Of a stretch of 64,000 bases of DNA, positions 1 to 55,851 are shown one piece after another; position 1 is the stretch's first letter, and each line of letters starts with the position of its first letter. The notes under the pieces are model-generated. The model was not told where the DNA came from. It searched no databases and saw nothing but the letters and a program-made list of their open reading frames with translations. Location of the stretch: positions 973,909 to 1,037,908 of the forward strand of contig NZ_JBHSXH010000015.1 of assembly GCF_042662625.1 (NCBI RefSeq), in the 5' to 3' direction. Position numbers and translations under genes: made by a program. The stretch is from Halopelagius fulvigenes (GTDB lineage Archaea > Halobacteriota > Halobacteria > Halobacteriales > Haloferacaceae).

Positions 1-1305
1 GGAGTCCATGCGCTTCTCCACGTCGTCTAAGTGGCCGTACGCCTTGCCGTACCCCGCCGACCCGCGGACGTTCGGTTCGAAGACGGCGTACCCGTGCGCG
101 AGGAAGTACTGCTTCACCGCGCTGAACGACGGCCGGCGTTGGGACTCGGGGCCGCCGTGGATGTCCACGATGACGGGCGTGTCGCCCTCGCCGGTGTCGG
201 TCTGGGGTAACGAGAAGAACGCCGGTATCTCCCGCCCGTCGAACGTCGGGTAGCGGACGAGTTCCGGTTCGACGAACGACTCTCTCGGGATGCCCGCCGT
301 CGCCGCGCGGGTCCACCGTTCGGCCTCGCCCGTCTTCGCGTCCACGACGTACACGTTCGTCGCGTCGGTGCTCGTCGTCACCGTCAGGGCGAACCGGTCG
401 CCGTCGGGGCCCCACGAGACGCCGCCCGCGACGCCGCGCGGCACGTCAGGTTCGGAGGACGGGTCGATTCTGTCGGGCGCGGTGAGTTCGCCCACCGTGA
501 GTCGGGTGTAGCCGTCCGCGTTCCGCGAGTAGGCGACGCGGCGGGAGTCCTCGTCTATCGAGACGCCGTCTATCTCCCACTCGTCGTCCGAGACGACGAG
601 CGAGAACTCGCCGGTGTCGATATCGACGCGCCACAGGTCGAGCGTGTCGCTCTCGCGGTCCGAGACGAGGTAGACGCTCTCGCCGTCGGGACCCCACGAG
701 GCGCTCTGGAAGCGCACCGTCCCCTCGTGGGGCGTGAGGTGCGTCACCTCGCCCGATTCGATATCGAGGACCGAGACGTCCTGGTCGAAGTTCGAGTACG
801 CCTCCGAGACGATGAGCTTCGCGTCGTCGGGCGACCACCCGCCGAGGGTGAGCCACCCGTCGCCCTCGTGGACGAGTTCCGCCCGTTCGCCCCTCTCGTC
901 GCGACCCTGCACGTACACGTCGAAGACGGACTCCTCGCGGCGGTTCGAGGTGAACGCGACCCTGTCGCCGTCGTGGCTCCACCCCCCCCAGCGGTGCTTC
1001 GCGTCCGGCATCGCGGTGAGGTTCGTCACCTCGCCCGTGCCGGGGTCGTAGCGGAACAGCTGCTGACGCTCGTTGCCGCCCTCGTCCATCCCGAAGGCGA
1101 GTTCGTCGCGTTCGGGCGACCACGAGGCGAACGTGACGCGTTCGTCGTAGAAGGTCTGCTGTTCGGGCCACACGCCGGGTTCCGTTATCGTCCAGACCTG
1201 CGGCACGCCCGTCGTGTCCATGAGAAACGAGAGGCGCTCCCCCTCGGGACCGAACGACGCGCCGTAGGCGCTTCTGACGTTCAGATACCGCTCGATGTCG
1301 TGCAC
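1..1305 (-). CDS. S9 family peptidase (acylaminoacyl-peptidase/prolyl oligopeptidase-like; beta-propeller N-domain + alpha/beta-hydrolase C-domain); 3' end runs off the window start
   Basis: One minus-strand frame reads continuously: VHDIERYLNVRSAYGASFGPEGERLSFLMDT...HRWGGWSHDGDRVAF...VIVDIHGGPESQ...NVRGSAGYGKAYGHLDDVEKRMDS (GSAGYG nucleophile-elbow region). Absent from the ORF track because there is no stop inside the window. Start uncertain: GTG at c(1303..1305) or ATG at c(1219..1221). Confidence 0.8.
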   Translation of the reverse strand, partial: MHDIERYLNVRSAYGASFGPEGERLSFLMDTTGVPQVWTITEPGVWPEQQTFYDERVTFASWSPERDELAFGMDEGGNERQQLFRYDPGTGEVTNLTAMPDAKHRWGGWSHDGDRVAFTSNRREESVFDVYVQGRDERGERAELVHEGDGWLTLGGWSPDDAKLIVSEAYSNFDQDVSVLDIESGEVTHLTPHEGTVRFQSASWGPDGESVYLVSDRESDTLDLWRVDIDTGEFSLVVSDDEWEIDGVSIDEDSRRVAYSRNADGYTRLTVGELTAPDRIDPSSEPDVPRGVAGGVSWGPDGDRFALTVTTSTDATNVYVVDAKTGEAERWTRAATAGIPRESFVEPELVRYPTFDGREIPAFFSLPQTDTGEGDTPVIVDIHGGPESQRRPSFSAVKQYFLAHGYAVFEPNVRGSAGYGKAYGHLDDVEKRMDS

Positions 1306-1363
1306 GGGGGAACGTCGGGGGCCGGCGAGGAAACGTTTCGGGTGGTCGGGGCCGCGTCCGCCG

Positions 1364-1618
1364 TCAGTAGCTCCGGAACTCGCGTCCGACCTCGGTCAGC
1401 TTCGGGCGGAGTTTGTCCGTCGCGAGCAGGTACGCGAAGGTGAGCGCAACCGCGCCCATGACCGCGGCCCACGCGGCGAGCTTCGGTTGGCCGCCCTGCG
1501 CGGTGGCGACGGCGAAGGACTCCGCGTAGAGCGCCGCCGCCGAGAGGCCGAGCGACCCGGCGCCGTAGAACAGTAGTTCGAGGAGTTCGGGAAGGAGTTC
1601 GAGTAACGCAGTCGTCAT
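1364..1618 (-). CDS. small hydrophobic membrane protein (hypothetical)
   Basis: 84 aa ORF, two predicted TM helices, no Arg-rich artefact composition; sits directly upstream of the peptidase on the same strand. Confidence 0.35.
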   Translation of the reverse strand: MTTALLELLPELLELLFYGAGSLGLSAAALYAESFAVATAQGGQPKLAAWAAVMGAVALTFAYLLATDKLRPKLTEVGREFRSY

Positions 1619-1682
1619 TACCGACGCGTCCCGAGCGACCGGCTGAAGTTCTTTCGGTCGTCGGACGGGATTCGACCGCGAC

Positions 1683-1955
1683 TCAGAGCATCCCTTCGGC
1701 CTTCAGGCCCTCGATGATGTCGTCCACGAGGGTATCGACGTCATCGTAGGGGAAGCTCTGGTGGCTTCCGAGCTTCGCGGCCATCTCCATCGCGGTGAAG
1801 CTGACTTCGCCGTCGTTCGCCTCGAAGCGAGTGCCCGGCCCGTTCGGGAGGGCGGGGACGAGGTCCATCTGGTTTTTCACGGGGAAGTCGGCACCTTCGA
1901 ACGCGTCTCGAAGTTCGGAGCGGAGTTCCGATTCGGCGTCTGCCATGGCACCCAA
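1683..1955 (-). CDS. small acidic protein, MTH865-like family (hypothetical)
   Basis: 90 aa, very acidic haloarchaeal composition (ELRDAFEGADFPV...DTLVDDIIEGLKAEGML); family assignment is from memory and tentative. Confidence 0.45.
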   Translation of the reverse strand: MGAMADAESELRSELRDAFEGADFPVKNQMDLVPALPNGPGTRFEANDGEVSFTAMEMAAKLGSHQSFPYDDVDTLVDDIIEGLKAEGML

Positions 1956-2055
1956 TGGTCACATGAGGCGCAAAAGCGTTCCGGAACCACGGCAAACGAG
2001 TTTACCGTTCTACCGGGACGCGAGTCTTTTTGCGGCGGCGTCGGGAAGGGAGTCC

Positions 2056-3111
2056 ATGGCCGACTACGAGTTCGACTTCGACCTCCTGAAGGAACTGACG
2101 GAGACGAGCGGCGTCCCGGGGTACGAGGACCGCGTCCGCGACGCGGTTCGCCGGGAGTTCGAATCGAGCGTGGACGAGGTTCGCTCGGACGCGATGGGAA
2201 ACGTCGTGGGCACCATCGAGGGCGACGGGGACTACGCCGTCGCCGTCGCCGCCCACATGGACGAGATAGGCTTCATGGTGCGTCACGTCACCGACGACGG
2301 GTTCGTCCAACTCGACGCCCTCGGCGGGTGGGACCCGCGCGTCCTGAAGGCCCAACGCGTCCGCATCCACACCGAGGACGGCGACGTGCCGGGCGTCATC
2401 GGGTCGCCGCCGCCGCACACCCTCTCCGAGGAGGAGAAGGAGAAGGCCCCGAAAGTTGAGGACGTCCACGTCGACGTGGGCCTCTCCGCCGAGGACGCGA
2501 AGGACGCGGTATCCGTCGGCGACGTGGTGACGATGGAGCAGACGACGGTGGAGATGGGCGACGTGGTGACGGGGAAGGCCCTCGACGACCGGGTCTGCCT
2601 GTTCTCGATGCTCGAAGCCGCGAAGCGAATCGAGGACCCCGACGTGACCGTCCACTTCGCCGCGACGGTGCAGGAGGAGGTGGGACTCCGCGGGGCGAAG
2701 GCCCTCGGCGTCGATATCGACCCGGACCTCGCCATCGCACTCGACGTGACCGTCGCCAACGACGTGCCCGGGTTCGAGGCGGGCGACCGCGTGACGGAGC
2801 TCGGCGAGGGGACGGCGATAAAGCTGAAAGACGGCAGCGTCATCACGAGTCCGAAGGTCCACCGCCGCCTCCGGTCGGTGGCCGAATCGGAGGACATCTC
2901 CCACCAGATGGAGATCCTGCCCGCGGGCGGCACGGACACGGCGGGCTTTCAGAACACCCACGGCGCGAAGCCGGTCGGCGCGCTCTCCGTGCCGACGCGG
3001 TACCTCCACACCGTGACCGAGAGCGCGCACGTCGCCGACGTGGACGCGACCATCGACCTCCTCGCGGCGTTCTTAGAGAGCGAGACGGGCGAATACGACT
3101 ACGCCTACTGA
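2056..3111 (+). CDS. M42 family metallopeptidase (TET/FrvX-type aminopeptidase)
   Basis: 351 aa from MADYEFDFDLLKELTETSGVPGYE...; the ORF-track ORF begins upstream at 1795 in an Arg/Ser-rich stretch taken as non-coding. Conserved M42 motifs (HMDEIGF, QEEVGLRGA, DVTVANDVPG) are read directly. Confidence 0.85.
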   Translation: MADYEFDFDLLKELTETSGVPGYEDRVRDAVRREFESSVDEVRSDAMGNVVGTIEGDGDYAVAVAAHMDEIGFMVRHVTDDGFVQLDALGGWDPRVLKAQRVRIHTEDGDVPGVIGSPPPHTLSEEEKEKAPKVEDVHVDVGLSAEDAKDAVSVGDVVTMEQTTVEMGDVVTGKALDDRVCLFSMLEAAKRIEDPDVTVHFAATVQEEVGLRGAKALGVDIDPDLAIALDVTVANDVPGFEAGDRVTELGEGTAIKLKDGSVITSPKVHRRLRSVAESEDISHQMEILPAGGTDTAGFQNTHGAKPVGALSVPTRYLHTVTESAHVADVDATIDLLAAFLESETGEYDYAY

Positions 3112-3224
3112 ACCGTCGCCGACGGCCGTCGCGCGTCGCCGACAGTCGCCGCCGGGGGACGGACCCCCCTCTCCGCGAGCCGTAAACCAAAGTATTCACT
3201 ACAGCCGACTCCCAACCCCCGACT

Positions 3225-3887
3225 ATGACTGACGGCAACGCGGAGATGTCCCGTCGTGCCTTCCTTCGGACCGCCACCGGGGCGACGGCCGTCGCAGGAG
3301 CGGCAGGGACCGCCGCGGCGCAGGAAACGGGTACGAGCACGGCGTCCGGCGGCGAAGGGACCGGAACCTCGGGCGGGGGAACCGGAACCTCCGGCGGCGG
3401 CAACGAATCCTCCGGCGGCGGAGGCGGTGGCGGTGGCGGCGGCGGTACGCAGACGATAGAGGTCGGTCCCGGCGGTGACCTCGTGTTCAAGCCCGGTACC
3501 GACCAACCGGCGCAGGTGACGCCCGGCACGACGGTCAAGTGGGTCTGGAAGTCGGACAACCACAACGTCGTCCCCGACACCATCCCCGACGGCGCGAGTT
3601 GGTCGGGTCACAAACCCATCGAGAACTCCGGATTCACCTACAGCCACACGTTCGACACCCTCGGCACGTACGAGTACTACTGCGAACCCCACCAGTCCGC
3701 GGGCATGGTCGGGACGCTCGAAGTCGTCGAGTCCATCTCGACGCCCGCGCCCGAGCAAGTGCCGTCCGTCCCCAACTCGGCGAAGACGCTCGGCGTCGCC
3801 ACCACGTTCGCGATGGTCGCCACGCTCGGTCTGGCGTTCTTCTTCCTGAAGTACGGCGGCGACTACGAACTCGACGACGAGGAGTAA
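3225..3887 (+). CDS. halocyanin (plastocyanin-like type-1 copper protein) with Tat signal, Gly-rich linker and C-terminal membrane anchor
   Basis: SRRAFLRTATGATAVAG twin-Arg signal; cupredoxin ligand pattern ...YYCEPHQSAGMVG...; C-terminal hydrophobic helix plus acidic tail. The 13-Gly run is encoded by the ggc/ggt repeats at 3418-3456. Confidence 0.85.
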   Translation: MTDGNAEMSRRAFLRTATGATAVAGAAGTAAAQETGTSTASGGEGTGTSGGGTGTSGGGNESSGGGGGGGGGGGTQTIEVGPGGDLVFKPGTDQPAQVTPGTTVKWVWKSDNHNVVPDTIPDGASWSGHKPIENSGFTYSHTFDTLGTYEYYCEPHQSAGMVGTLEVVESISTPAPEQVPSVPNSAKTLGVATTFAMVATLGLAFFFLKYGGDYELDDEE

Positions 3888-3970
3888 TTCCGACCGCCTT
3901 TCTCCGATTTTTCGGCCCCGAGAGCGGTCAGCTTCGCTGGCTCGTGAGGCGGGAGCGGTGCCGTCCTATC

Positions 3971-4133
3971 GTACCGCGACGAGCGAGCGTCAGCGAGCGA
4001 GTCGCGGCCTTTTTGGGTCCAGCGTTTTTGGCGGGGTTCGAGGCGACGTCGCCGAACTTCGTTCGGCGGCCCACCGGACGCAGTCCGGTGACGGCATCGC
4101 CGTCGCCGAGGACCCCGTGAAAAAGGGTGGTTA
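3971..4133 (-). repeat. Structured intergenic repeat, copy A (long subtype). In element orientation: stop codon of GT4 gene - CCACCCTTTTT - GC-rich hairpin region - AAAAACGCTGGACCCAAAAAGGCCGCGACTCGCTCGCTGACGCTCGCTCGTCGCGGTAC
   Basis: Shares the ordered motifs with copies at 6484-6598, 35800-35875 and 62126-62215. Lies between convergent halocyanin and GT4 genes. The GT4 stop codon (TAA, c4131-4133) is immediately followed by CCACCCTTTTT. Confidence 0.7.
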
Positions 4134-5189
4134 GAAGTACCCGTAGTCCTCGACGGCCTCGGTGTAGCAGTCCACGTACTGCCGGACCACGGTCGAGTGG
4201 TCGTAGTCGGCGAACGCCTCGTTGACCGTCATCTCGTCGGCGCGGGCGGCGACGGCGATTTCGCGCGCGAGTTCCTGCGGACTCGTCACGCGGACGCCCC
4301 GGTCGCAGTTCTCGACGAGTTCGTGCGCGCTGGACCGCGCTTGGTACTCCACGAGGGCGACGCACCCGCAGGCGAGAGCCCACAGCAGTTCGTTCGCGAA
4401 CGGTTCGACGGCGGCGGTCTGTGCGAACACCCGCGCGCCTTTCATGACGGGGACGAACTCCTCCGGCGGCAGGTCGCCGAGGAACTCCACCCGATCGTCG
4501 ATGCGGAGTTCGGCGGCCGTCTGCTTGGCGGCGTCGAGTTCCGGGCCGTCGCCGACGACGGCGGCGCGCCAGTCCCTGTCGCGCAGTTCCGCGAGGGCGA
4601 GGAAGAACGACTCGACGTTGGCGTGCTCGTCGATGTCGCGGGCGTACACCATGTCCGCGCGGGCCTCCACGTCGCTCTCGCGGACGAGGTCGAAGTCGAT
4701 GGACTCCGGGACGACGCGGACGGACTCCTCGGACGCGCCGTACTCCCGGACGTGGGTCTTGACCATTCGGGAGGGGGCGATGACGCGTTTCGCCGCGCGC
4801 GCGGCGCGCTTGCTCGCGCCCTTCGAGTCCTCCTCGCGTTCGTCCCACCAGTCGACGACCACCGGCGTGCGGAGGAACCGCGCCGCCGTCTTCGCAGCGG
4901 TGACGTGGGAGGGCGGACTGTTGGCGGCGTGGACGACGTCGGGCTTGACGCGCCGGAGGGCGAAGGGGAGTTTCGAGGCGAACGACCCCACCGAGGGCGT
5001 CTCGGTGACGGCCGCGTACGTCACGTCGTCCTGTTCGAACTCTGACACGTCGCCCTCCCACCACCGCGCGCAGAGGACGGTCACGTCGTGGCCGCGCGCG
5101 GCGAGGAGTTCCGCCGTCCGCCGCGTCCGTCTCGTCGCACCGTCGGCGCGACGTTGCTCGGTGTACATCGAGACGAACGCGATTCGCAT
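4131..5189 (-). CDS. glycosyltransferase family 4 (GT4, GT-B fold)
   Basis: 352 aa; GT4-like C-terminal region (EPFANELLWALACGCVALV... EX7E-like). Confidence 0.7.
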   Translation of the reverse strand: MRIAFVSMYTEQRRADGATRRTRRTAELLAARGHDVTVLCARWWEGDVSEFEQDDVTYAAVTETPSVGSFASKLPFALRRVKPDVVHAANSPPSHVTAAKTAARFLRTPVVVDWWDEREEDSKGASKRAARAAKRVIAPSRMVKTHVREYGASEESVRVVPESIDFDLVRESDVEARADMVYARDIDEHANVESFFLALAELRDRDWRAAVVGDGPELDAAKQTAAELRIDDRVEFLGDLPPEEFVPVMKGARVFAQTAAVEPFANELLWALACGCVALVEYQARSSAHELVENCDRGVRVTSPQELAREIAVAARADEMTVNEAFADYDHSTVVRQYVDCYTEAVEDYGYF

Positions 5190-49030: not shown

Positions 49031-51160
49031 TTACTGCGGACTCGGGCTGGACGGCCCGGAGACCTTGTTCTCCTGCGAGAGTGCGGAACCGGTGATGCTC
49101 TTGAGGCGGGCTACGAGAGAGTCCTTCTCGGGTTCGCCTTCCAGAGCGATGTCGAGCACCTCGCTGATGTGGGAGACGGGGATTATCTCCACCATCTCGC
49201 GGTACTCGTCTTCGATCATCACATCCTGCATGTTCGCGGCGGGGATGATGACCTTGTCACATCCGGTCTTCGCCGCGGCCTCGATCTTGTGCGTGACGCC
49301 GCCGACGGGGAGCACGTCGCCGCGGACCGACAGACTGCCGGTCATCGCGAGCGACTGGTCCACGCCGACGCCTTCGAGCGCCGAGATGACCGCCGTCGCG
49401 ACGGTGATGGAGGCGGAGTCGCCGTCCACGCCGCCCTGTCCGGCCTGGACGAACTGGATGTGGATGTCCTTCTCGGAGATGTTCTCGTCGGAGAACTTCT
49501 TGATGATGGCCGAGACGTTGTCGACCGCCTCCTGCGCCATCTCCTTCAGCTGACCGGTGGCGATGACCTCGCCCGGCCCCTGCGAGGGCGTGACCTCGGC
49601 CATCACGGGGAGCATGATGCCGGAGTCCTCGCCCATGACCGCCAGACCGTTGACGCGGCCGACTTGGTAGCCCTCCGCGACCTGCAGTTCGTAGTCCTTG
49701 CGGCGTTCGATGTAGTCGTCCGCGAGCTGCTGCTCGATGGAGCGACTGCGACCCTTCGCCTGCAGGACGTGGTCGCGCGTCACGACGTCCGCGTCCTGTC
49801 CGCGGGCGATGTCGCCCGAGACGCGGACGAGACCGCCGAGGTTGCGGAGTTCGAGCGTCAGGTGACCCTTCCGGCCGGCGCGGCGGCGGGCTTCGAGGAT
49901 GGTCTCCTCGATGGCCTCCGCGGAGAAGTCGGGCAGGCGGCCGTCTTTCTCGACCTCTTGGGCCACGAAGCGCACGTACTTGCGGCGCATCTCCGGGGTG
50001 TCCTCGATGGTGTCGTCCATGTACACCTCGTACCCGTACCCCTTGATGCGGGAGCGGAGCGCGGGGTGCATGTTCTCCATCGCGTCGAGGTTACCCGCGG
50101 CGATCATGATGAAGTCCGTCGGGACGGGTTCCGTCTGGACCATCGCGCCCGAGGAGCGCTCGGACTGGCCCGTGATGGAGAACTCGCCCTCCTGAATCGC
50201 CGTCATGAGGTGCTGCTGGCTGCGGATGTCGAGCGTGTTTATCTCGTCGATGAACAGCACGCCCTTGTTCGCCTTGTGGATGGCACCCGGTTCGACCCGG
50301 TCGTGACTCGGCGTCTCCATGCCGCCGGACTGGAACGGGTCGTGGCGGACGTCGCCGAGGAGCGCACCGGCGTGCGCGCCGGTCGCGTCCTCGAAGGGCG
50401 CGGCCGTCTCGTCGGCGTTGTTCACGATGAGGTTCGGAATCATCGCGTCGCTTCCGCGAGAGCCGTAGCGGAACGCCAGATAGATGATACCCGCCGCGAG
50501 GATGCCGAGCAGAATCTGCCCGGCGATGATGAGCGAGTAGCCGAGGACGATGGCGATGATGATCCACATGAGGAACGACCGCATCTGGTTGCGCTTGCGG
50601 GCCTCCTCCTTGTGGGCCTCGACTATCTGCTCGCCCTTGCCGGCGGGGACGGTGCGTACCTTCGGGTTGTTCCCGTCGTCGGGGTTGTGGTAGACGAGGA
50701 CGTCCTGAAGCTCCTCTTTGGGGAGGAGTTCGGCCATTGCCTTCGCGAGCATCGACTTGCCCGTACCGGGCGAGCCGATCATCATGACGTGGCGGCGCTG
50801 CTTTGCCGCCTTTATCACGACGTCGCGGGCGTGTTCCTGACCGATAACCTGATCGACGAGCCTGTCCGGGACCTGAATCTCCTCGGTAGAATCTATCTGC
50901 AGACCGCCAAGAAGATCGTCTTCGTCGATATCGTCGGCGACGTCCGCCGTGACCTCGACTTCGCTGCCGAGGTCGTCGATGGTCCCTTTATCGGGGTCGT
51001 CAGACCCTGTCTGACGGCCCGCAGAGCCACGCTCTGCGACCCCGTCGTCAGGTCCGGACTCCGGAAACACCTCGTCGTCGGACGACGAGTCGGGGGTCTC
51101 GTCGGAGACGTTCTCCCCCTCCTCCGGAAGGTTGTCGTCGGTGTCGGTGTCGTTACTCAT
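49031..51160 (-). CDS. lonB: archaeal-type Lon protease (LonB; AAA+ ATPase with inserted membrane anchor + Ser-Lys protease domain)
   Basis: Walker A (GSPGTGKSMLAKAMA); two TM helices inserted in the AAA module; protease domain (...GDSASITVATAVISALEG...). Confidence 0.9.
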   Translation of the reverse strand: MSNDTDTDDNLPEEGENVSDETPDSSSDDEVFPESGPDDGVAERGSAGRQTGSDDPDKGTIDDLGSEVEVTADVADDIDEDDLLGGLQIDSTEEIQVPDRLVDQVIGQEHARDVVIKAAKQRRHVMMIGSPGTGKSMLAKAMAELLPKEELQDVLVYHNPDDGNNPKVRTVPAGKGEQIVEAHKEEARKRNQMRSFLMWIIIAIVLGYSLIIAGQILLGILAAGIIYLAFRYGSRGSDAMIPNLIVNNADETAAPFEDATGAHAGALLGDVRHDPFQSGGMETPSHDRVEPGAIHKANKGVLFIDEINTLDIRSQQHLMTAIQEGEFSITGQSERSSGAMVQTEPVPTDFIMIAAGNLDAMENMHPALRSRIKGYGYEVYMDDTIEDTPEMRRKYVRFVAQEVEKDGRLPDFSAEAIEETILEARRRAGRKGHLTLELRNLGGLVRVSGDIARGQDADVVTRDHVLQAKGRSRSIEQQLADDYIERRKDYELQVAEGYQVGRVNGLAVMGEDSGIMLPVMAEVTPSQGPGEVIATGQLKEMAQEAVDNVSAIIKKFSDENISEKDIHIQFVQAGQGGVDGDSASITVATAVISALEGVGVDQSLAMTGSLSVRGDVLPVGGVTHKIEAAAKTGCDKVIIPAANMQDVMIEDEYREMVEIIPVSHISEVLDIALEGEPEKDSLVARLKSITGSALSQENKVSGPSSPSPQ

Positions 51161-51406
51161 AGTAGTCTAACACGCTTTCCAGTTCCTGAGAGCGGCGCTC
51201 CCGTCCGGTCGTTTGCCGGTTGAGTGCCTGATACTCATAGAACTGTGTCGCTACTACAATGGTGGGTCGCTCAACTGATATACTTTCTCCCCGCATCCGA
51301 CCGACGCACTCCCCAATTAAACGGACGTTTCAGGGCGTTTAACAACGGATTAGGTGATTTATTACGACTCGCACACTTTATAAACGATGCGCGGGAAAAC
51401 AGGACC

Positions 51407-51949
51407 ATGCGGGGGTTCTACATCGGCCGGTTTCAGCCATACCACAACGGTCACCACCAGATGGTCAAAGAGATAGCCACGGAGGTAGACGAACTCGTCC
51501 TCGGAATCGGGAGCGCCGGCGACTCCCACTCGACGCGGAACCCGTTCACCGCGGGCGAGCGAATCATGATGGTCACGAAGTCGGTCGTCGACTTCGACAT
51601 CACCACCTACGCCGTCCCCATCGAGGACTTAGAGCGCAACTCCGTGTGGGTGAGTCACGTCCAGAGCATGTCCCCGGCGTTCGACGTGGCGTACTCGAAC
51701 AATCCGCTCGTCATCCAGCTGTTCAAGGAGGCGGGCGTCGAAGTGCGGCAGTCCCCGATGTTCAACCGAGGGGTCCTGCAGGGGACCGAACTCCGCGACC
51801 GGATGATATCCGGCGAGGACTGGCGGAGCCTCGTCCCCGAACCGGTGGCGGGCGTCATCGACGAGATCGGCGGCATCGAACGCATCCAACGCGTGAGCGA
51901 CACCGACTCCGGCGGGTATGACACCGACGAGGGGACCGACCCCGCTTGA
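51407..51949 (+). CDS. nadM: nicotinamide-nucleotide adenylyltransferase, archaeal type
   Basis: MRGFYIGRFQPYHNGHHQMV (H/TxGH motif); 180 aa. Confidence 0.8.
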   Translation: MRGFYIGRFQPYHNGHHQMVKEIATEVDELVLGIGSAGDSHSTRNPFTAGERIMMVTKSVVDFDITTYAVPIEDLERNSVWVSHVQSMSPAFDVAYSNNPLVIQLFKEAGVEVRQSPMFNRGVLQGTELRDRMISGEDWRSLVPEPVAGVIDEIGGIERIQRVSDTDSGGYDTDEGTDPA

Positions 51950-52725: not shown

Positions 52726-53274
52726 CTACTCGATTCGCCCCCGAAGGAGGCACTCGCGGACCGTTTCGCCGAGCACCTCCGCCTCCCGTTCTTCGACGGC
52801 CTCGTACCCCCGCGACCGATAGAACGAGCGCCCGACCCGGTTCTCGGCGAGGACGCGCATTTCGAGCGTCTCACAGTCTTCCTGCCGGCAGAACTCCTCG
52901 ATTCGCGCCAACAGCGCGGTTCCGACGCCCTCGCCCCAGTAGTCGGGTTCGACGTAGATGGCGCTGAGCGTCGCGACGCCCTCCGTCTCGCCCGGTCCGC
53001 CCGCGGCGAACCCGACGACACCGACGGGGTCCGTCCCCCGGTCCGCCGGAGTGCGGCCGGAGGCGTCCGCCTCCAGTTCGGCCACGAAGTACGCCGCGTC
53101 GCCGCCCTCGACGAATGCCCGCGTCGCGTCGGGCGCGTACCACTTCGCCATCGCGGCGTCGATCGTCTCCCGCGAGAGGATGTCGCCGTAGGCGGTGTTC
53201 CATCCGCGCCGGGCGATGCGTCGGACGGCGGGCACGTCGTCGGCCGTCGCGTCGCGAACCGTCACCTCGGTCAT
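52726..53274 (-). CDS. GNAT family N-acetyltransferase
   Basis: (IYVEPDYWGEGVGTALL) acetyl-CoA motif A. Confidence 0.7.
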   Translation of the reverse strand: MTEVTVRDATADDVPAVRRIARRGWNTAYGDILSRETIDAAMAKWYAPDATRAFVEGGDAAYFVAELEADASGRTPADRGTDPVGVVGFAAGGPGETEGVATLSAIYVEPDYWGEGVGTALLARIEEFCRQEDCETLEMRVLAENRVGRSFYRSRGYEAVEEREAEVLGETVRECLLRGRIE

Positions 53275-53424
53275 GGCGAGGCGTTCGACCGACTCCGAAG
53301 TAAAGACTCGGTGAGAGGAGGGTCGGACGGTCGGGGGACGGAGCGGCGAGAGAAAATCGGGGGAGGTGACGTCGGACGGCGACTACGGCCAATCTGAGCT
53401 AGCAACTTCGTTGCTGCCACAGAT

Positions 53425-54165
53425 ATGTTCGATTGTGTCGTGGCTACTGCTCTCTTGGGAGGTCTTCTTTTAATAGGTTCAGGCCGCAGCACACGCGTAG
53501 TGATGCTACTAGAGCATCTAATAGGGGAGAACAGAGATTCAATCGGTAGTCGGCACCAGTATCCTTACCTCATTGTTGTTCTGATGCTGATGGTAGATGT
53601 GATATTATTCCTTTGTCTACCTCAGAAACAGATGTCAGTGGTAATCTCGATTGAAGGACTAATCCTGGACGTTATAGGGGCATCTCTTCTTGCTACCCTT
53701 GATACGGAATGGCTGTATGGGCGGTATGCGAATGAGGATGCCTCTGATCGAGTTAATGCATTCTATGACGGCTATGAGGAGCTAAGCCGTAAATTAGAGC
53801 TTGATAATACGAACTCCAAGTTCAGGCCTCTCGCTATGGCTGTTAAACAAGCCCTTGATGACAAGGTAGAAATTACAGCCCTCAAGATAGACGTTTCCGA
53901 AGTGAATTCTTGGGAGCGGTTGTTTGCTAATCGAGAGAATCCAATTCAGGCATTTGAACAGCATCACATGATCTTCAAGAACCTCCCACAGGTACGCGCT
54001 ATCACAGATAGTGACGAAGAAATCCCTCTTGGGTCACACCGACATGTAAAGAGAATGGTCCCTGTTCAAAATTATGTTCGTGACCAAAATCAGAAATATT
54101 TCCGATCTGCGATGATCATTTTTATATTGGGATTCTCCTTCCAAATTTTCTCATACGCGTTCTAA
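53425..54165 (+). CDS. orphan membrane protein encoded in a low-GC island (3 N-terminal TM helices, ~130 aa soluble domain, C-terminal TM helix); no recognisable family
   Basis: Only long ORF in the AT-rich segment 53390-54275 (~45% GC versus ~68% flanks). Composition is non-halophilic (Asn/Ile/Lys/Phe/Tyr-rich, low Asp/Glu excess). Confidence 0.55.
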   Translation: MFDCVVATALLGGLLLIGSGRSTRVVMLLEHLIGENRDSIGSRHQYPYLIVVLMLMVDVILFLCLPQKQMSVVISIEGLILDVIGASLLATLDTEWLYGRYANEDASDRVNAFYDGYEELSRKLELDNTNSKFRPLAMAVKQALDDKVEITALKIDVSEVNSWERLFANRENPIQAFEQHHMIFKNLPQVRAITDSDEEIPLGSHRHVKRMVPVQNYVRDQNQKYFRSAMIIFILGFSFQIFSYAF

Positions 54166-54279
54166 TCTCTATTTTCCAGAGCGAGGAAGGTGCACCACCG
54201 ATGACTGAATCCCATCGGGCGAGAGTCGGTGATTAACCACCGAAAGCGTAGAGTTCGCCCGACAGAGTATCTCTATTCT

Positions 54280-55851
54280 CTACTTCGCGGCGATGACGTC
54301 GTCGATGCGGAGAATCATCGTCGCGGCCTCCGTCGCGGACTCGACCGCTTCGCGCTTGACGGCGGCGGGGTCGATGATGCCGCGTTCGACGGGGTCGCCG
54401 ATTTCGCCGCTGCGACCGGTTGAGATGATGCCGGCGACGCCCTCGCTCTCGTAGCGGGCGCGGAGGTCCACGAGGGCGTCGATGGGGTCCATGCCGGTGT
54501 TCTCCGCGAGGGTGCGCGGGAGGGCTTCGACGGCGTCGGCGTACGCCTCGACGGCCAACTGCTTGCGGCCCTCGATGCTCGCCGCCGCGGAGCGGAGGTG
54601 GTCGGCGATGGCGATTTCGGTCGCGCCGGCGCCGGGGACGACGCCGCCTTTGTCCACCGCGGCGACGACGACGTCGACGGCGTCGTTGACGGCGCGTTCG
54701 AGTTCGTCAACCACGTGGTCGGTGCCGCCGCGGAGGAACAGCGTCACGGACTTCGCCGCCGCGCCGCCCTCCACGAAGGTGAGTTCGTCGTCGCCGAACG
54801 TCCGGGCCGAGACGGCCTCGGCGCGGCCGAAGTCGCTCGATTCGAGGTCGGCGACCGACCCGAGGCGCTTCGCGCCCGTCGCGCGGGCGATGGCCCGGGC
54901 GTCGGACTTCTTCACGCTCTTGAACGCGAGGATGCCCTCGTCGGCGAGGTGGCCCGCCACGCGGTCCGAGATGGACTTCGTACAGAACACCACGTCGACG
55001 CCCGCGTCGGCGAGCGTCTTCGCGTAGCCGCGGAGTTCGTCGTCCTCGGCTCGGATGGCGGCGTCGAGTTGCTCGACGGAGGTGATGTTGTACTCCGTGT
55101 CGAGTTCGCCCTTCCGCACGTCGAGTTTCACGTCGAGGACGGCCACGGTGGCGTCTTCGACGCGCAGGGGCATGTTGTCGTGGACGCGTTCCTTGTCGAT
55201 GACGACGCCCTCGACCAGTTCGGTCGCCGAGGAGGAGGACCCGGTGCGCGTCGTGATGCGCACGTCGTCCCGGTCGAACGTCTCGTTGTCGTCGTGGACC
55301 ATCCGCACCGCCCCGACGACGTGTTCGGCGAGGACGTCGGCGGTCACGTCACCGGTTCCCTTGCCGGTCATCGACGACTCGGCGACCTGTTCGAGGAGTT
55401 CGTCGTCCAGTTTGACGGCCAGCAGTTGCTCGTCGATGGCCTCCTGCGCGAGGCGGGCGGCCTCGTTGTACCCCTCGACGATGACGGTGGGGTGGAGGTC
55501 CCCTTCGAGGAGGTCCTCGGCGTGGACGAGGAGTTCGCCCGCGAGGACGGCGGCGGTGGTGGTGCCGTCGCCGACTTCCTCCTCCTGCGTCCGGGCGACT
55601 TCGACGATCATCTGCGCCGCCGGGTGTTCGATGTCCATCTGTTCGAGGATGGTCGCACCGTCGTTGGTGATGACGACTTCACCGGAGGAATCGACGAGCA
55701 TCTTGTCCATCCCGCGGGGGCCGAGCGTCGTCCGGACGGCGCTCGCGACGGCCTTTCCGGCGCGGATGTTCGAGTCCTGCGCGGCCTGACCGTTGGTCCG
55801 GTTGCTGCCGCTCGCCAGAATGTACAGTGGTTGCTGCATACGTGTCGCCAT
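54280..55851 (-). CDS. ths: thermosome subunit (group II chaperonin)
   Basis: ([33 protein letters not shown]) signatures; 523 aa. Confidence 0.9.

Follow-up and report, generated by a model that had tools for sequence, protein, structure and literature searches.

Low-GC islets that carry hypothetical proteins are already familiar in the flexible genomes of haloarchaea. Two further systems serve here for comparison: Avs2, which is described as a single-gene system, and SpoIISA of the Bacillus SpoIISA/SpoIISB pair, a protein of ~220-250 aa in which N-terminal transmembrane (TM) helices are followed by a cytoplasmic domain. The present analysis concerns an AT-rich segment of 890 bp in Halopelagius fulvigenes, located between a GNAT acetyltransferase gene and the Cpn60/TCP1 thermosome gene. 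It was studied in a stretch of 64,000 nucleotides (contig NZ_JBHSXH010000015.1, positions 973,909 to 1,037,908), hereafter the window. The segment carries one gene, for a membrane protein, and was very probably acquired by horizontal transfer, recently and in the H. fulvigenes lineage only. The initial annotation of this DNA, made from the sequence alone, had taken the host for a Halobacterium; the organism is H. fulvigenes, and it is the only one in which the protein is annotated.

The segment stands out by its base composition. In 200-bp windows the G+C content is 0.405-0.475 across 53400-54299 and 0.62-0.76 on both sides. In 600-bp windows over the 64 kb, the lowest value (0.437, at 53601-54200) marks the sole such trough, and the next lowest is 0.575. 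The insert as a whole has a G+C content of 0.452 versus ~0.68 for the host, and the G+C content at third codon positions (GC3) of its gene is 0.44 versus 0.86-0.94 in the neighboring genes. The predicted product also differs from its neighbors. Asn, Ile, Lys, Tyr and Phe together account for 0.248 of its residues (0.10-0.18 in neighbors), Asp and Glu for 0.122 (0.16-0.19), and its isoelectric point is 5.5 (4.4-5.5). The low-GC island first drawn at 53390-54275 and the Asn/Ile/Lys/Tyr/Phe-rich, non-acidic composition first described for its product are both confirmed, and the boundaries obtained from the empty site match the earlier ones almost exactly. The features of the locus are listed below in window coordinates; the open reading frame (ORF) reported earlier between the GNAT and thermosome genes is present.

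52726-53274, minus strand: GNAT acetyltransferase gene, left flank
53390-54279, no strand assigned: presumed foreign insert of 890 bp with no counterpart in the sister species, from the empty-site junction alignment
53425-54165, plus strand: longest ORF, 246 aa, GC3 0.44
54166-54279, no strand assigned: non-coding 3' tail of the insert, ~114 bp, the 3' region common to the convergent membrane-protein and thermosome genes
54280-54282, minus strand: thermosome stop codon at the right junction, TAG in the window
54280-55851, minus strand: Cpn60/TCP1 thermosome gene, right flank

The corresponding loci of the sister species H. longus and H. inordinatus were reached via SAM-HAT orthologues. The gap between the GNAT and thermosome genes measures 183 bp in H. 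longus and 144 bp in H. inordinatus versus 1005 bp in the window, and the flanks of the insert are 89-92% identical to the sister species. In the empty site of H. longus, ...GTCTACGGC joins TTA|CTTCGCGG directly, TTA being the thermosome stop codon on the other strand. In the window, ...GACTACGGC stops at 53389 and CTA|CTTCGCGG restarts at 54280, with the insert junction letters C|CAATC on the left and TTCT|CTAC on the right. The stop codon itself reads TAG in H. fulvigenes versus TAA in both H. longus (L087, 7510-7512) and H. inordinatus (L089, 7438-7440), for which reason the right junction may fall within the stop codon. The insertion has shifted the thermosome gene's complete native 3' untranslated region 890 bp away. 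Sister species are needed for this comparison: genus-level alignments of the 3' flank are uninformative, because homology ends at the thermosome stop codon.

On a related contig from JGI (P0010), SAM-HAT directly adjoins the thermosome gene, and both the membrane-protein gene and the GNAT gene are absent. With the thermosome protein as anchor, 80 loci of other haloarchaeal genomes were retrieved. The gene order amidohydrolase, thermosome, variable slot, SAM-HAT, NMNAT is widely conserved, and in none of these 80 genomes does the slot hold the membrane-protein ORF or the GNAT gene. The slot spans 16 bp to 5.7 kb in the 61 measurable loci, none of which has a comparable G+C trough. The initial annotation had named a finding that would speak for an old conserved gene, orthologues of equally low G+C content at this locus across many genera; none were found. 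Empty sites in both sister species, the absence from 80 genomes and the GC3 value thus uphold the recent acquisition proposed there, and the comparison with relatives also defined the insertion boundaries and revealed no target-site duplication. None of the proposed donors (a halovirus, a nanohaloarchaeon or Haloquadratum) was picked out by searches of IMG/VR, INPHARED and PLSDB, which gave no matches. Two contigs that carry homologues have a G+C content of 0.43-0.46, and one of them encodes an acidic protein; this is compatible with a low-GC halophile as donor without identifying it.

Some further observations concern the surroundings of the insert. Within the slot between thermosome and SAM-HAT, the GNAT gene occurs only in Halopelagius. 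Elsewhere the slot is occupied by ordinary host genes of high GC3, such as a UPF0126/TRIC-like membrane protein and APC amino-acid permeases, and on this ground the slot was rejected as a hotspot of mobile elements. At 51100-51500 the G+C content dips more mildly (0.50-0.56), where the NMNAT gene and the Lon-protease side, to which a 47-aa ORF belongs, are separated by a divergent intergenic region. As the H. longus sequence is ~91-95% identical here, this dip is native and no second insertion.

The stop-free run of the insert gene is 255 codons long, and all of 2000 shuffled inserts gave shorter runs (maximum 182); it is therefore a coding sequence and not a chance ORF. Four hydrophobic segments are present in the 246-aa ORF (residues 1-19, 47-65, 72-90 and 228-246), in agreement with the three N-terminal helices and one C-terminal helix first predicted. 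The first segment is probably not translated, as it lies upstream of all homologue starts, which leaves three TM helices. All homologues (219-230 aa) start opposite residues ~28-33 of the query, and residues 1-41 have a predicted local distance difference test score (pLDDT) below 40 in the AlphaFold model. A TATA-like box is also well placed. It is the sole match of the TTTAAT/TTTAWA type in the 5' half of the insert, and its spacing to the start codon is the canonical TATA position for a leaderless haloarchaeal transcript. Together, homologue starts, low pLDDT and TATA-like box suggest that the true product has 220-221 aa and three TM helices, instead of 246 aa and four. From this one putative box, the insert appears to bring its own TATA-like promoter. 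Annotated starts disagree: GenBank MFC6826369.1 has 241 aa (GTG 53440) versus 177 aa (ATG 53632) in RefSeq WP_379697879.1. The RefSeq start, at M70, is too short because it removes the conserved TM helix upstream of M70. A perfect small palindrome, AGCAAC-TTC-GTTGCT, is located at 53403-53417, just within the left end of the insert and 8 nt upstream of the ATG at 53425. The features of the gene and its product are:

53468-53475, plus strand: TATA-like box TTTTAATA, 25-32 nt upstream of GTG 53500
53503-54165, plus strand: probable true coding sequence of a protein with three TM helices, 220 aa from ATG 53503 or 221 aa from GTG 53500, start inferred
53563-53619, plus strand: predicted TM helix a, residues 47-65, Kyte-Doolittle 19-residue mean 2.70, conserved in the homologues
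53638-53694, plus strand: predicted TM helix b, residues 72-90, with the conserved acidic motif IEGLxLDxIGA, Kyte-Doolittle mean 2.11
53695-54105, plus strand: soluble domain of ~135 aa, predicted cytoplasmic, with a long helix and a small alpha/beta unit (AlphaFold, pLDDT mostly 70-83)
54106-54162, plus strand: predicted C-terminal TM helix, residues 228-246, SAMxxFxxGFxFQIxxY, the most conserved part

The alignment of the five known sequences also shows a conserved basic short N-terminus (PGRRHxYP). Lys and Arg residues precede the last TM helix and suggest that the soluble domain is cytoplasmic. The model built from this alignment shows two long helices, one of them C-terminal, together with a helical hairpin and a small alpha/beta unit. 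With Foldseek, nothing in the PDB was found below E = 0.49, and a fold search of BFVD gave nothing significant (best E 0.037, TM score 0.2).

A word-indexed search of 5.8 billion clusters returned only the protein itself. Homologues were found in an exhaustive phmmer (HMMER) search of 1.84 billion cluster representatives, which stand for ~15 billion proteins. It detected four distant ones, P0002-P0005, with 32-33% identity and E-values of 1e-28 to 4e-8; one variant of 90% identity, P0127, is also on record. P0006, a repeat protein of 572 aa (E = 1e-4), matched in six short stretches and was rejected as spurious, and a weak match to Pfam DUF1759 (E = 0.075, below the cut-off) was dismissed. No members were added by a word-index profile search, by IMG/VR, by the JGI metagenome contigs or by tblastn against PLSDB and INPHARED. 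No viral homologue was found in PHROGs, IMG/VR, INPHARED or BFVD. In PADLOC-DB v2 the window protein has no match at E <= 1 and the four homologues have none at E <= 0.01; PHROGs gave nothing below E = 0.049, and a profile search of PDB sequences gave 0 matches at E <= 1. A literature search found nothing specific to this gene or organism. By its sequence matches, the protein is thus not a strict ORFan and belongs to a very small uncharacterised family. The initial annotation, which recognised no family, was right as far as curated libraries are concerned; the family itself does exist.

Two close variants differ by 26 synonymous and 14 non-synonymous codons, over ~152 and 505 sites, respectively. 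The resulting crude ratio of non-synonymous to synonymous substitution rates (dN/dS) is ~0.16, with zero substitutions after residue 194; the family is therefore under purifying selection. Two variants that differ in 6% of their nucleotide sequence both have a G+C content of 0.42. Every homologue gene is AT-rich (0.42-0.50), even within DNA of 0.64-0.69 G+C.

Neighboring genes are visible on three homologue contigs, in three different neighborhoods. Independent contexts are few, because L083 and L084 are the same sequence. On L083 the family gene has a G+C content of 0.47 and its upstream flank one of 0.64-0.69. The start of the family gene shares 23 nt with an upstream RHH/CopG gene (1993-2319, 108 aa), and a DnaG-like primase lies nearby. 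The RHH protein has weak, sub-threshold matches to aCcr1 / CopG antitoxin, VapB and BrnA models, and by these could be a regulator or an antitoxin-like partner. On L085, an upstream gene overlaps the family gene by 4 nt, and a full-length Avs2 antiviral STAND NTPase (970-5181; PADLOC, 1417 bits) begins 190 bp downstream of it. Family gene and Avs2 share one block of 0.43-0.47 G+C, flanked by partial genes at 0.55-0.60. This Avs2 has a G+C content of 0.45 and is acidic (isoelectric point 4.6), as expected for a protein of a salt-in halophile; the contig is metagenomic and presumably stems from a halophilic archaeon. Avs2 is thus a neighbor in one of three informative contexts, a small sample, and no defence gene lies within 10 kb of the insert in the window. 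Contigs L082 and L090, both AT-rich, are short. On a further contig, L086 (ENA contig QH_Go_Scaff0564605, ~900-1651), a copy of the family is broken up into three reading frames. One holds the N-terminus and the first of the TM helices, one the FTTxLxIE motif and one the rest; this copy has either become a pseudogene or been distorted by errors of assembly.

Signs of a dedicated mobile element were sought in and around the insert. There are no tRNA genes in the 64-kb window and no integrase or transposase domains among the genes within 10 kb on either side, as the initial annotation had noted for integrases and tRNAs. It had also reported imperfect direct repeats. These exist, with the second copy at 54269-54280 and not at 54266-54277; they follow the 12-nt pattern ATCTCTATT(T/C)TC, and both copies lie at the 3' end of the insert. 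An 11/12 repeat occurs in 50% of shuffled inserts, and in 17.5% one occurs inside 150 bp. Since such repeats are common in shuffles, they are evidence of nothing. Their role as an att site or target-site duplication was ruled out by the shuffle test and by their position, which does not flank the insert. The features of the 3' tail are:

54165-54176, plus strand: direct repeat copy 1, ATCTCTATTTTC, 12 nt
54215-54262, no strand assigned: imperfect nested hairpin in the tail, z = -1.74, 9 of 200 shuffles folding equally well
54269-54280, plus strand: direct repeat copy 2, ATCTCTATTCTC, 12 nt, abutting the thermosome stop codon

The folds of the tail at 54215-54262 are not significant; on the minus strand the z value is -0.18. 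A T4 run at 54172-54175, directly after the stop codon of the ORF, is possibly an archaeal terminator signal. Rfam searches of the islet gave chance-level matches only, located inside the thermosome gene, and neither insert nor tail has DNA similarity to the homologue contigs or to the remaining window. Known classes of mobile elements were considered and set aside. An insertion sequence (IS) element, a miniature inverted-repeat transposable element or a transposon would come with inverted repeats, a target-site duplication or a transposase domain within 10 kb, none of which was seen. For an integrative element moved by an integrase, the tRNA (64 kb) and the nearby integrase domain are lacking, and the repeats are at chance level. 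The tail contains no attC core sites and the junctions are not of the G|TT type, as they would be in an integron gene cassette; the sole GTTRRRY of the insert is at 53842, inside the ORF.

The following course of events is proposed. After H. longus had split off, the H. fulvigenes lineage would have gained the AT-rich one-gene segment of 890 bp. The point of entry would be precisely where the GNAT-thermosome intergenic region meets the thermosome stop codon, and the route, most likely illegitimate or micro-homology-mediated recombination, would be one without a site-specific signature. The encoded protein of ~220 aa is predicted to cross the membrane three times, with an N-terminal acidic hairpin, a cytoplasmic domain of ~135 aa and a C-terminal anchor helix. 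Its family would be one known only from AT-rich genes in haloarchaeal-type DNA, beside mobile-element or antiviral genes. As an effector, the protein would oligomerise in the membrane and perturb it; conserved polar residues within the TM helices would suit an oligomeric pore or channel. A role in conflict between genomes (defence, superinfection exclusion or a toxin-like activity) is plausible because of the mobility, rarity and AT-richness of the gene, its Avs2 and RHH/primase neighbors and the polar residues inside the TM helices. To this role as a membrane-acting component we give only tentative credence. For the reading as a whole, an acquired AT-rich segment with a membrane-acting conflict function, the rough probability is 40%.

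A number of observations weigh against this reading. Only two to three homologue neighborhoods are informative, and guilt by association is weak. The window gene stands alone, without partner, regulator or sensor, and is hard to fit into a multi-component system. The family alignment contains no conserved catalytic motif, and there is no credible match in Pfam, PADLOC, PHROGs or NCBIfam, either for the protein or for its homologues, and none among PDB sequences. Confidence in the structure model is moderate (mean pLDDT 65.5, with 70-83 over most of residues 70-160 and 190-246). Target-site duplications were not seen when direct repeats of 2-10 bp were checked across both junctions; terminal inverted repeats are absent, with at most 13/40 matches between the insert termini; and there are no attC-type sites, given that neither RYYYAAC within the insert nor G|TT junctions were found. 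The toxin, abortive-infection or exclusion function first suggested for this gene therefore has the circumstantial backing of the Avs2 and RHH/primase neighbors, finds no library or fold match, and is not established.

The origin of the segment may be explained in two other ways. An assembly chimera or contaminant would account for the abrupt change of composition at both ends of the insert. However, a Logan contig assembled separately from run DRR723625 contains the same sequence and both junctions (100% identity over 20,576 bp), and the insert also lies, with both junctions, within the NCBI 1.85-Mb contig. The identity of the independent DRR723625 contig excludes an assembly chimera, and this explanation is effectively refuted. 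The alternative of an ancestral AT-rich gene, which H. longus and H. inordinatus would each have lost in a precise deletion of their own, draws on the tendency of the family to stay AT-rich inside GC-rich DNA, as on L083, and on the 6%-diverged variants that have kept the same low G+C content. For this reason low G+C content alone is no proof of recency. The ancestral gene is nevertheless very unlikely: precise deletions would have had to occur at least twice and to recreate one and the same junction beside the stop codon, the gene is also missing from the JGI relative and the 80 other genomes, and a GC3 of 0.44 versus ~0.9 indicates no amelioration. A single gain is preferred, being far more parsimonious than at least two precise losses, and the un-ameliorated GC3 agrees with it.

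Given a recent gain, the function of the product may still be other than conflict. The gene could be a neutral passenger, accessory cargo of a plasmid, provirus or integrative element (e.g. an anchor, sensor or maintenance protein). It would then either have stayed behind or been captured by illegitimate recombination, and would act neither in defence nor as a toxin in H. fulvigenes. The L083 context, with its DnaG-like primase and RHH gene, resembles a replication/regulation module, the defence libraries give no match, the window gene stands alone, and the family is too small for statistical association. Yet the family has no match in IMG/VR, among INPHARED phages or among PLSDB plasmids, one member adjoins an Avs2 gene of the same composition, and purifying selection means that some function is kept; such a passenger is possible, if somewhat doubtful. 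An orphaned membrane toxin would suit the overlap of 23 nt between RHH/CopG gene and family gene on L083, which has the classic antitoxin-then-toxin order and weak antitoxin-model matches. The RHH protein would repress it, neutralise it or do both in the ancestral module, from which only the downstream gene was transferred. The upstream gene on L085 likewise overlaps the family gene, by 4 nt, and N-terminal TM helices with a cytoplasmic domain resemble SpoIISA-type toxins. But the insert begins 35 bp before the ORF, with no space for an antitoxin, and a cell should not tolerate a toxin that nothing restrains. The SpoIISA structure (3o6q_C) is hit by Foldseek only at E = 1.4 with a probability of 0.03, i.e. 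no match; RHH proteins are also common as plain regulators; and the 29-aa C-terminal fragment of the upstream gene on L085 is unlike the C-terminus of the L083 RHH protein. On balance an orphaned toxin is improbable. Similarly small odds are given to a decaying remnant, neither expressed nor functional in H. fulvigenes, with an ORF intact only through very recent insertion. The copy broken over three reading frames on L086, the differing starts of the pipelines (241 aa vs 177 aa), the missing partner gene and a promoter case built on a single TATA-like match would all suit it. Against decay speak the stop-free run of 255 codons in sequence of 45% G+C, the residues invariant in the five-sequence alignment, all of which the window copy necessarily keeps, and the TATA-like box, which is canonically spaced from a start codon in line with the homologues.

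A bolder form of the conflict reading takes the family for a self-sufficient membrane-embedded effector of abortive infection or exclusion, spread as a promoter-bearing one-gene cassette that inserts without a dedicated recombinase, its AT-richness being selected or mechanistically relevant. AT-richness might then, for example, keep the gene distinct from host sequence or regulate it. This form is hardly probable.

The locus provides a base-resolved case of a GC-rich haloarchaeon that gains one foreign gene without recognisable mobile-element machinery, and in which the insertion replaces the native 3' region of a chaperonin gene. The analysis brings out a rare membrane-protein family with a handful of members among ~15 billion proteins, and corrects the annotated start codon of the gene to an inferred one. 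Should the family prove to consist of defence or exclusion effectors, it would enlarge the list, short as yet, of immune components in archaea; otherwise the case is one of tidy but ordinary turnover of the flexible genome.

In comparison with known systems, the insert has the layout of an integron cassette in that one ORF precedes a non-coding tail of ~114 bp in which an imperfect hairpin lies. Unlike such cassettes, the tail has no core sites, the hairpin is not significant, the gene has an apparent promoter of its own, and no integron integrase is nearby. The window protein is similar to SpoIISA in size and layout, but has no sequence or significant fold similarity to it; the family has an extra conserved C-terminal TM helix, and no SpoIISB-like partner is found. 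The RHH gene that overlaps the start of the family gene on L083 recalls type II RHH toxin-antitoxin systems, from which the family differs as an integral membrane protein without similarity to known type II toxins. The window insert holds no partner ORF, and the matches of the L083 RHH protein to antitoxin models are below curated cut-offs. The position of the homologue on L085, 190 bp upstream of Avs2 in the same AT-rich block, would fit an accessory gene of an Avs2 defence island; it is a single observation, whereas the window insert has no Avs nearby and the family is absent from PADLOC. The insert shares with the low-GC haloarchaeal islets a sharp trough and foreign codon usage; like them it is missing from sister species, is patchily distributed and carries a hypothetical membrane protein. 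It differs from them in being unusually small (one gene, 890 bp), in its position at a chaperonin stop codon and in having no IS element, integrase or tRNA. Notable in this islet are boundaries resolved to the base at the stop codon of an essential gene, the lack of a mobility signature, and a protein family that is extremely rare.

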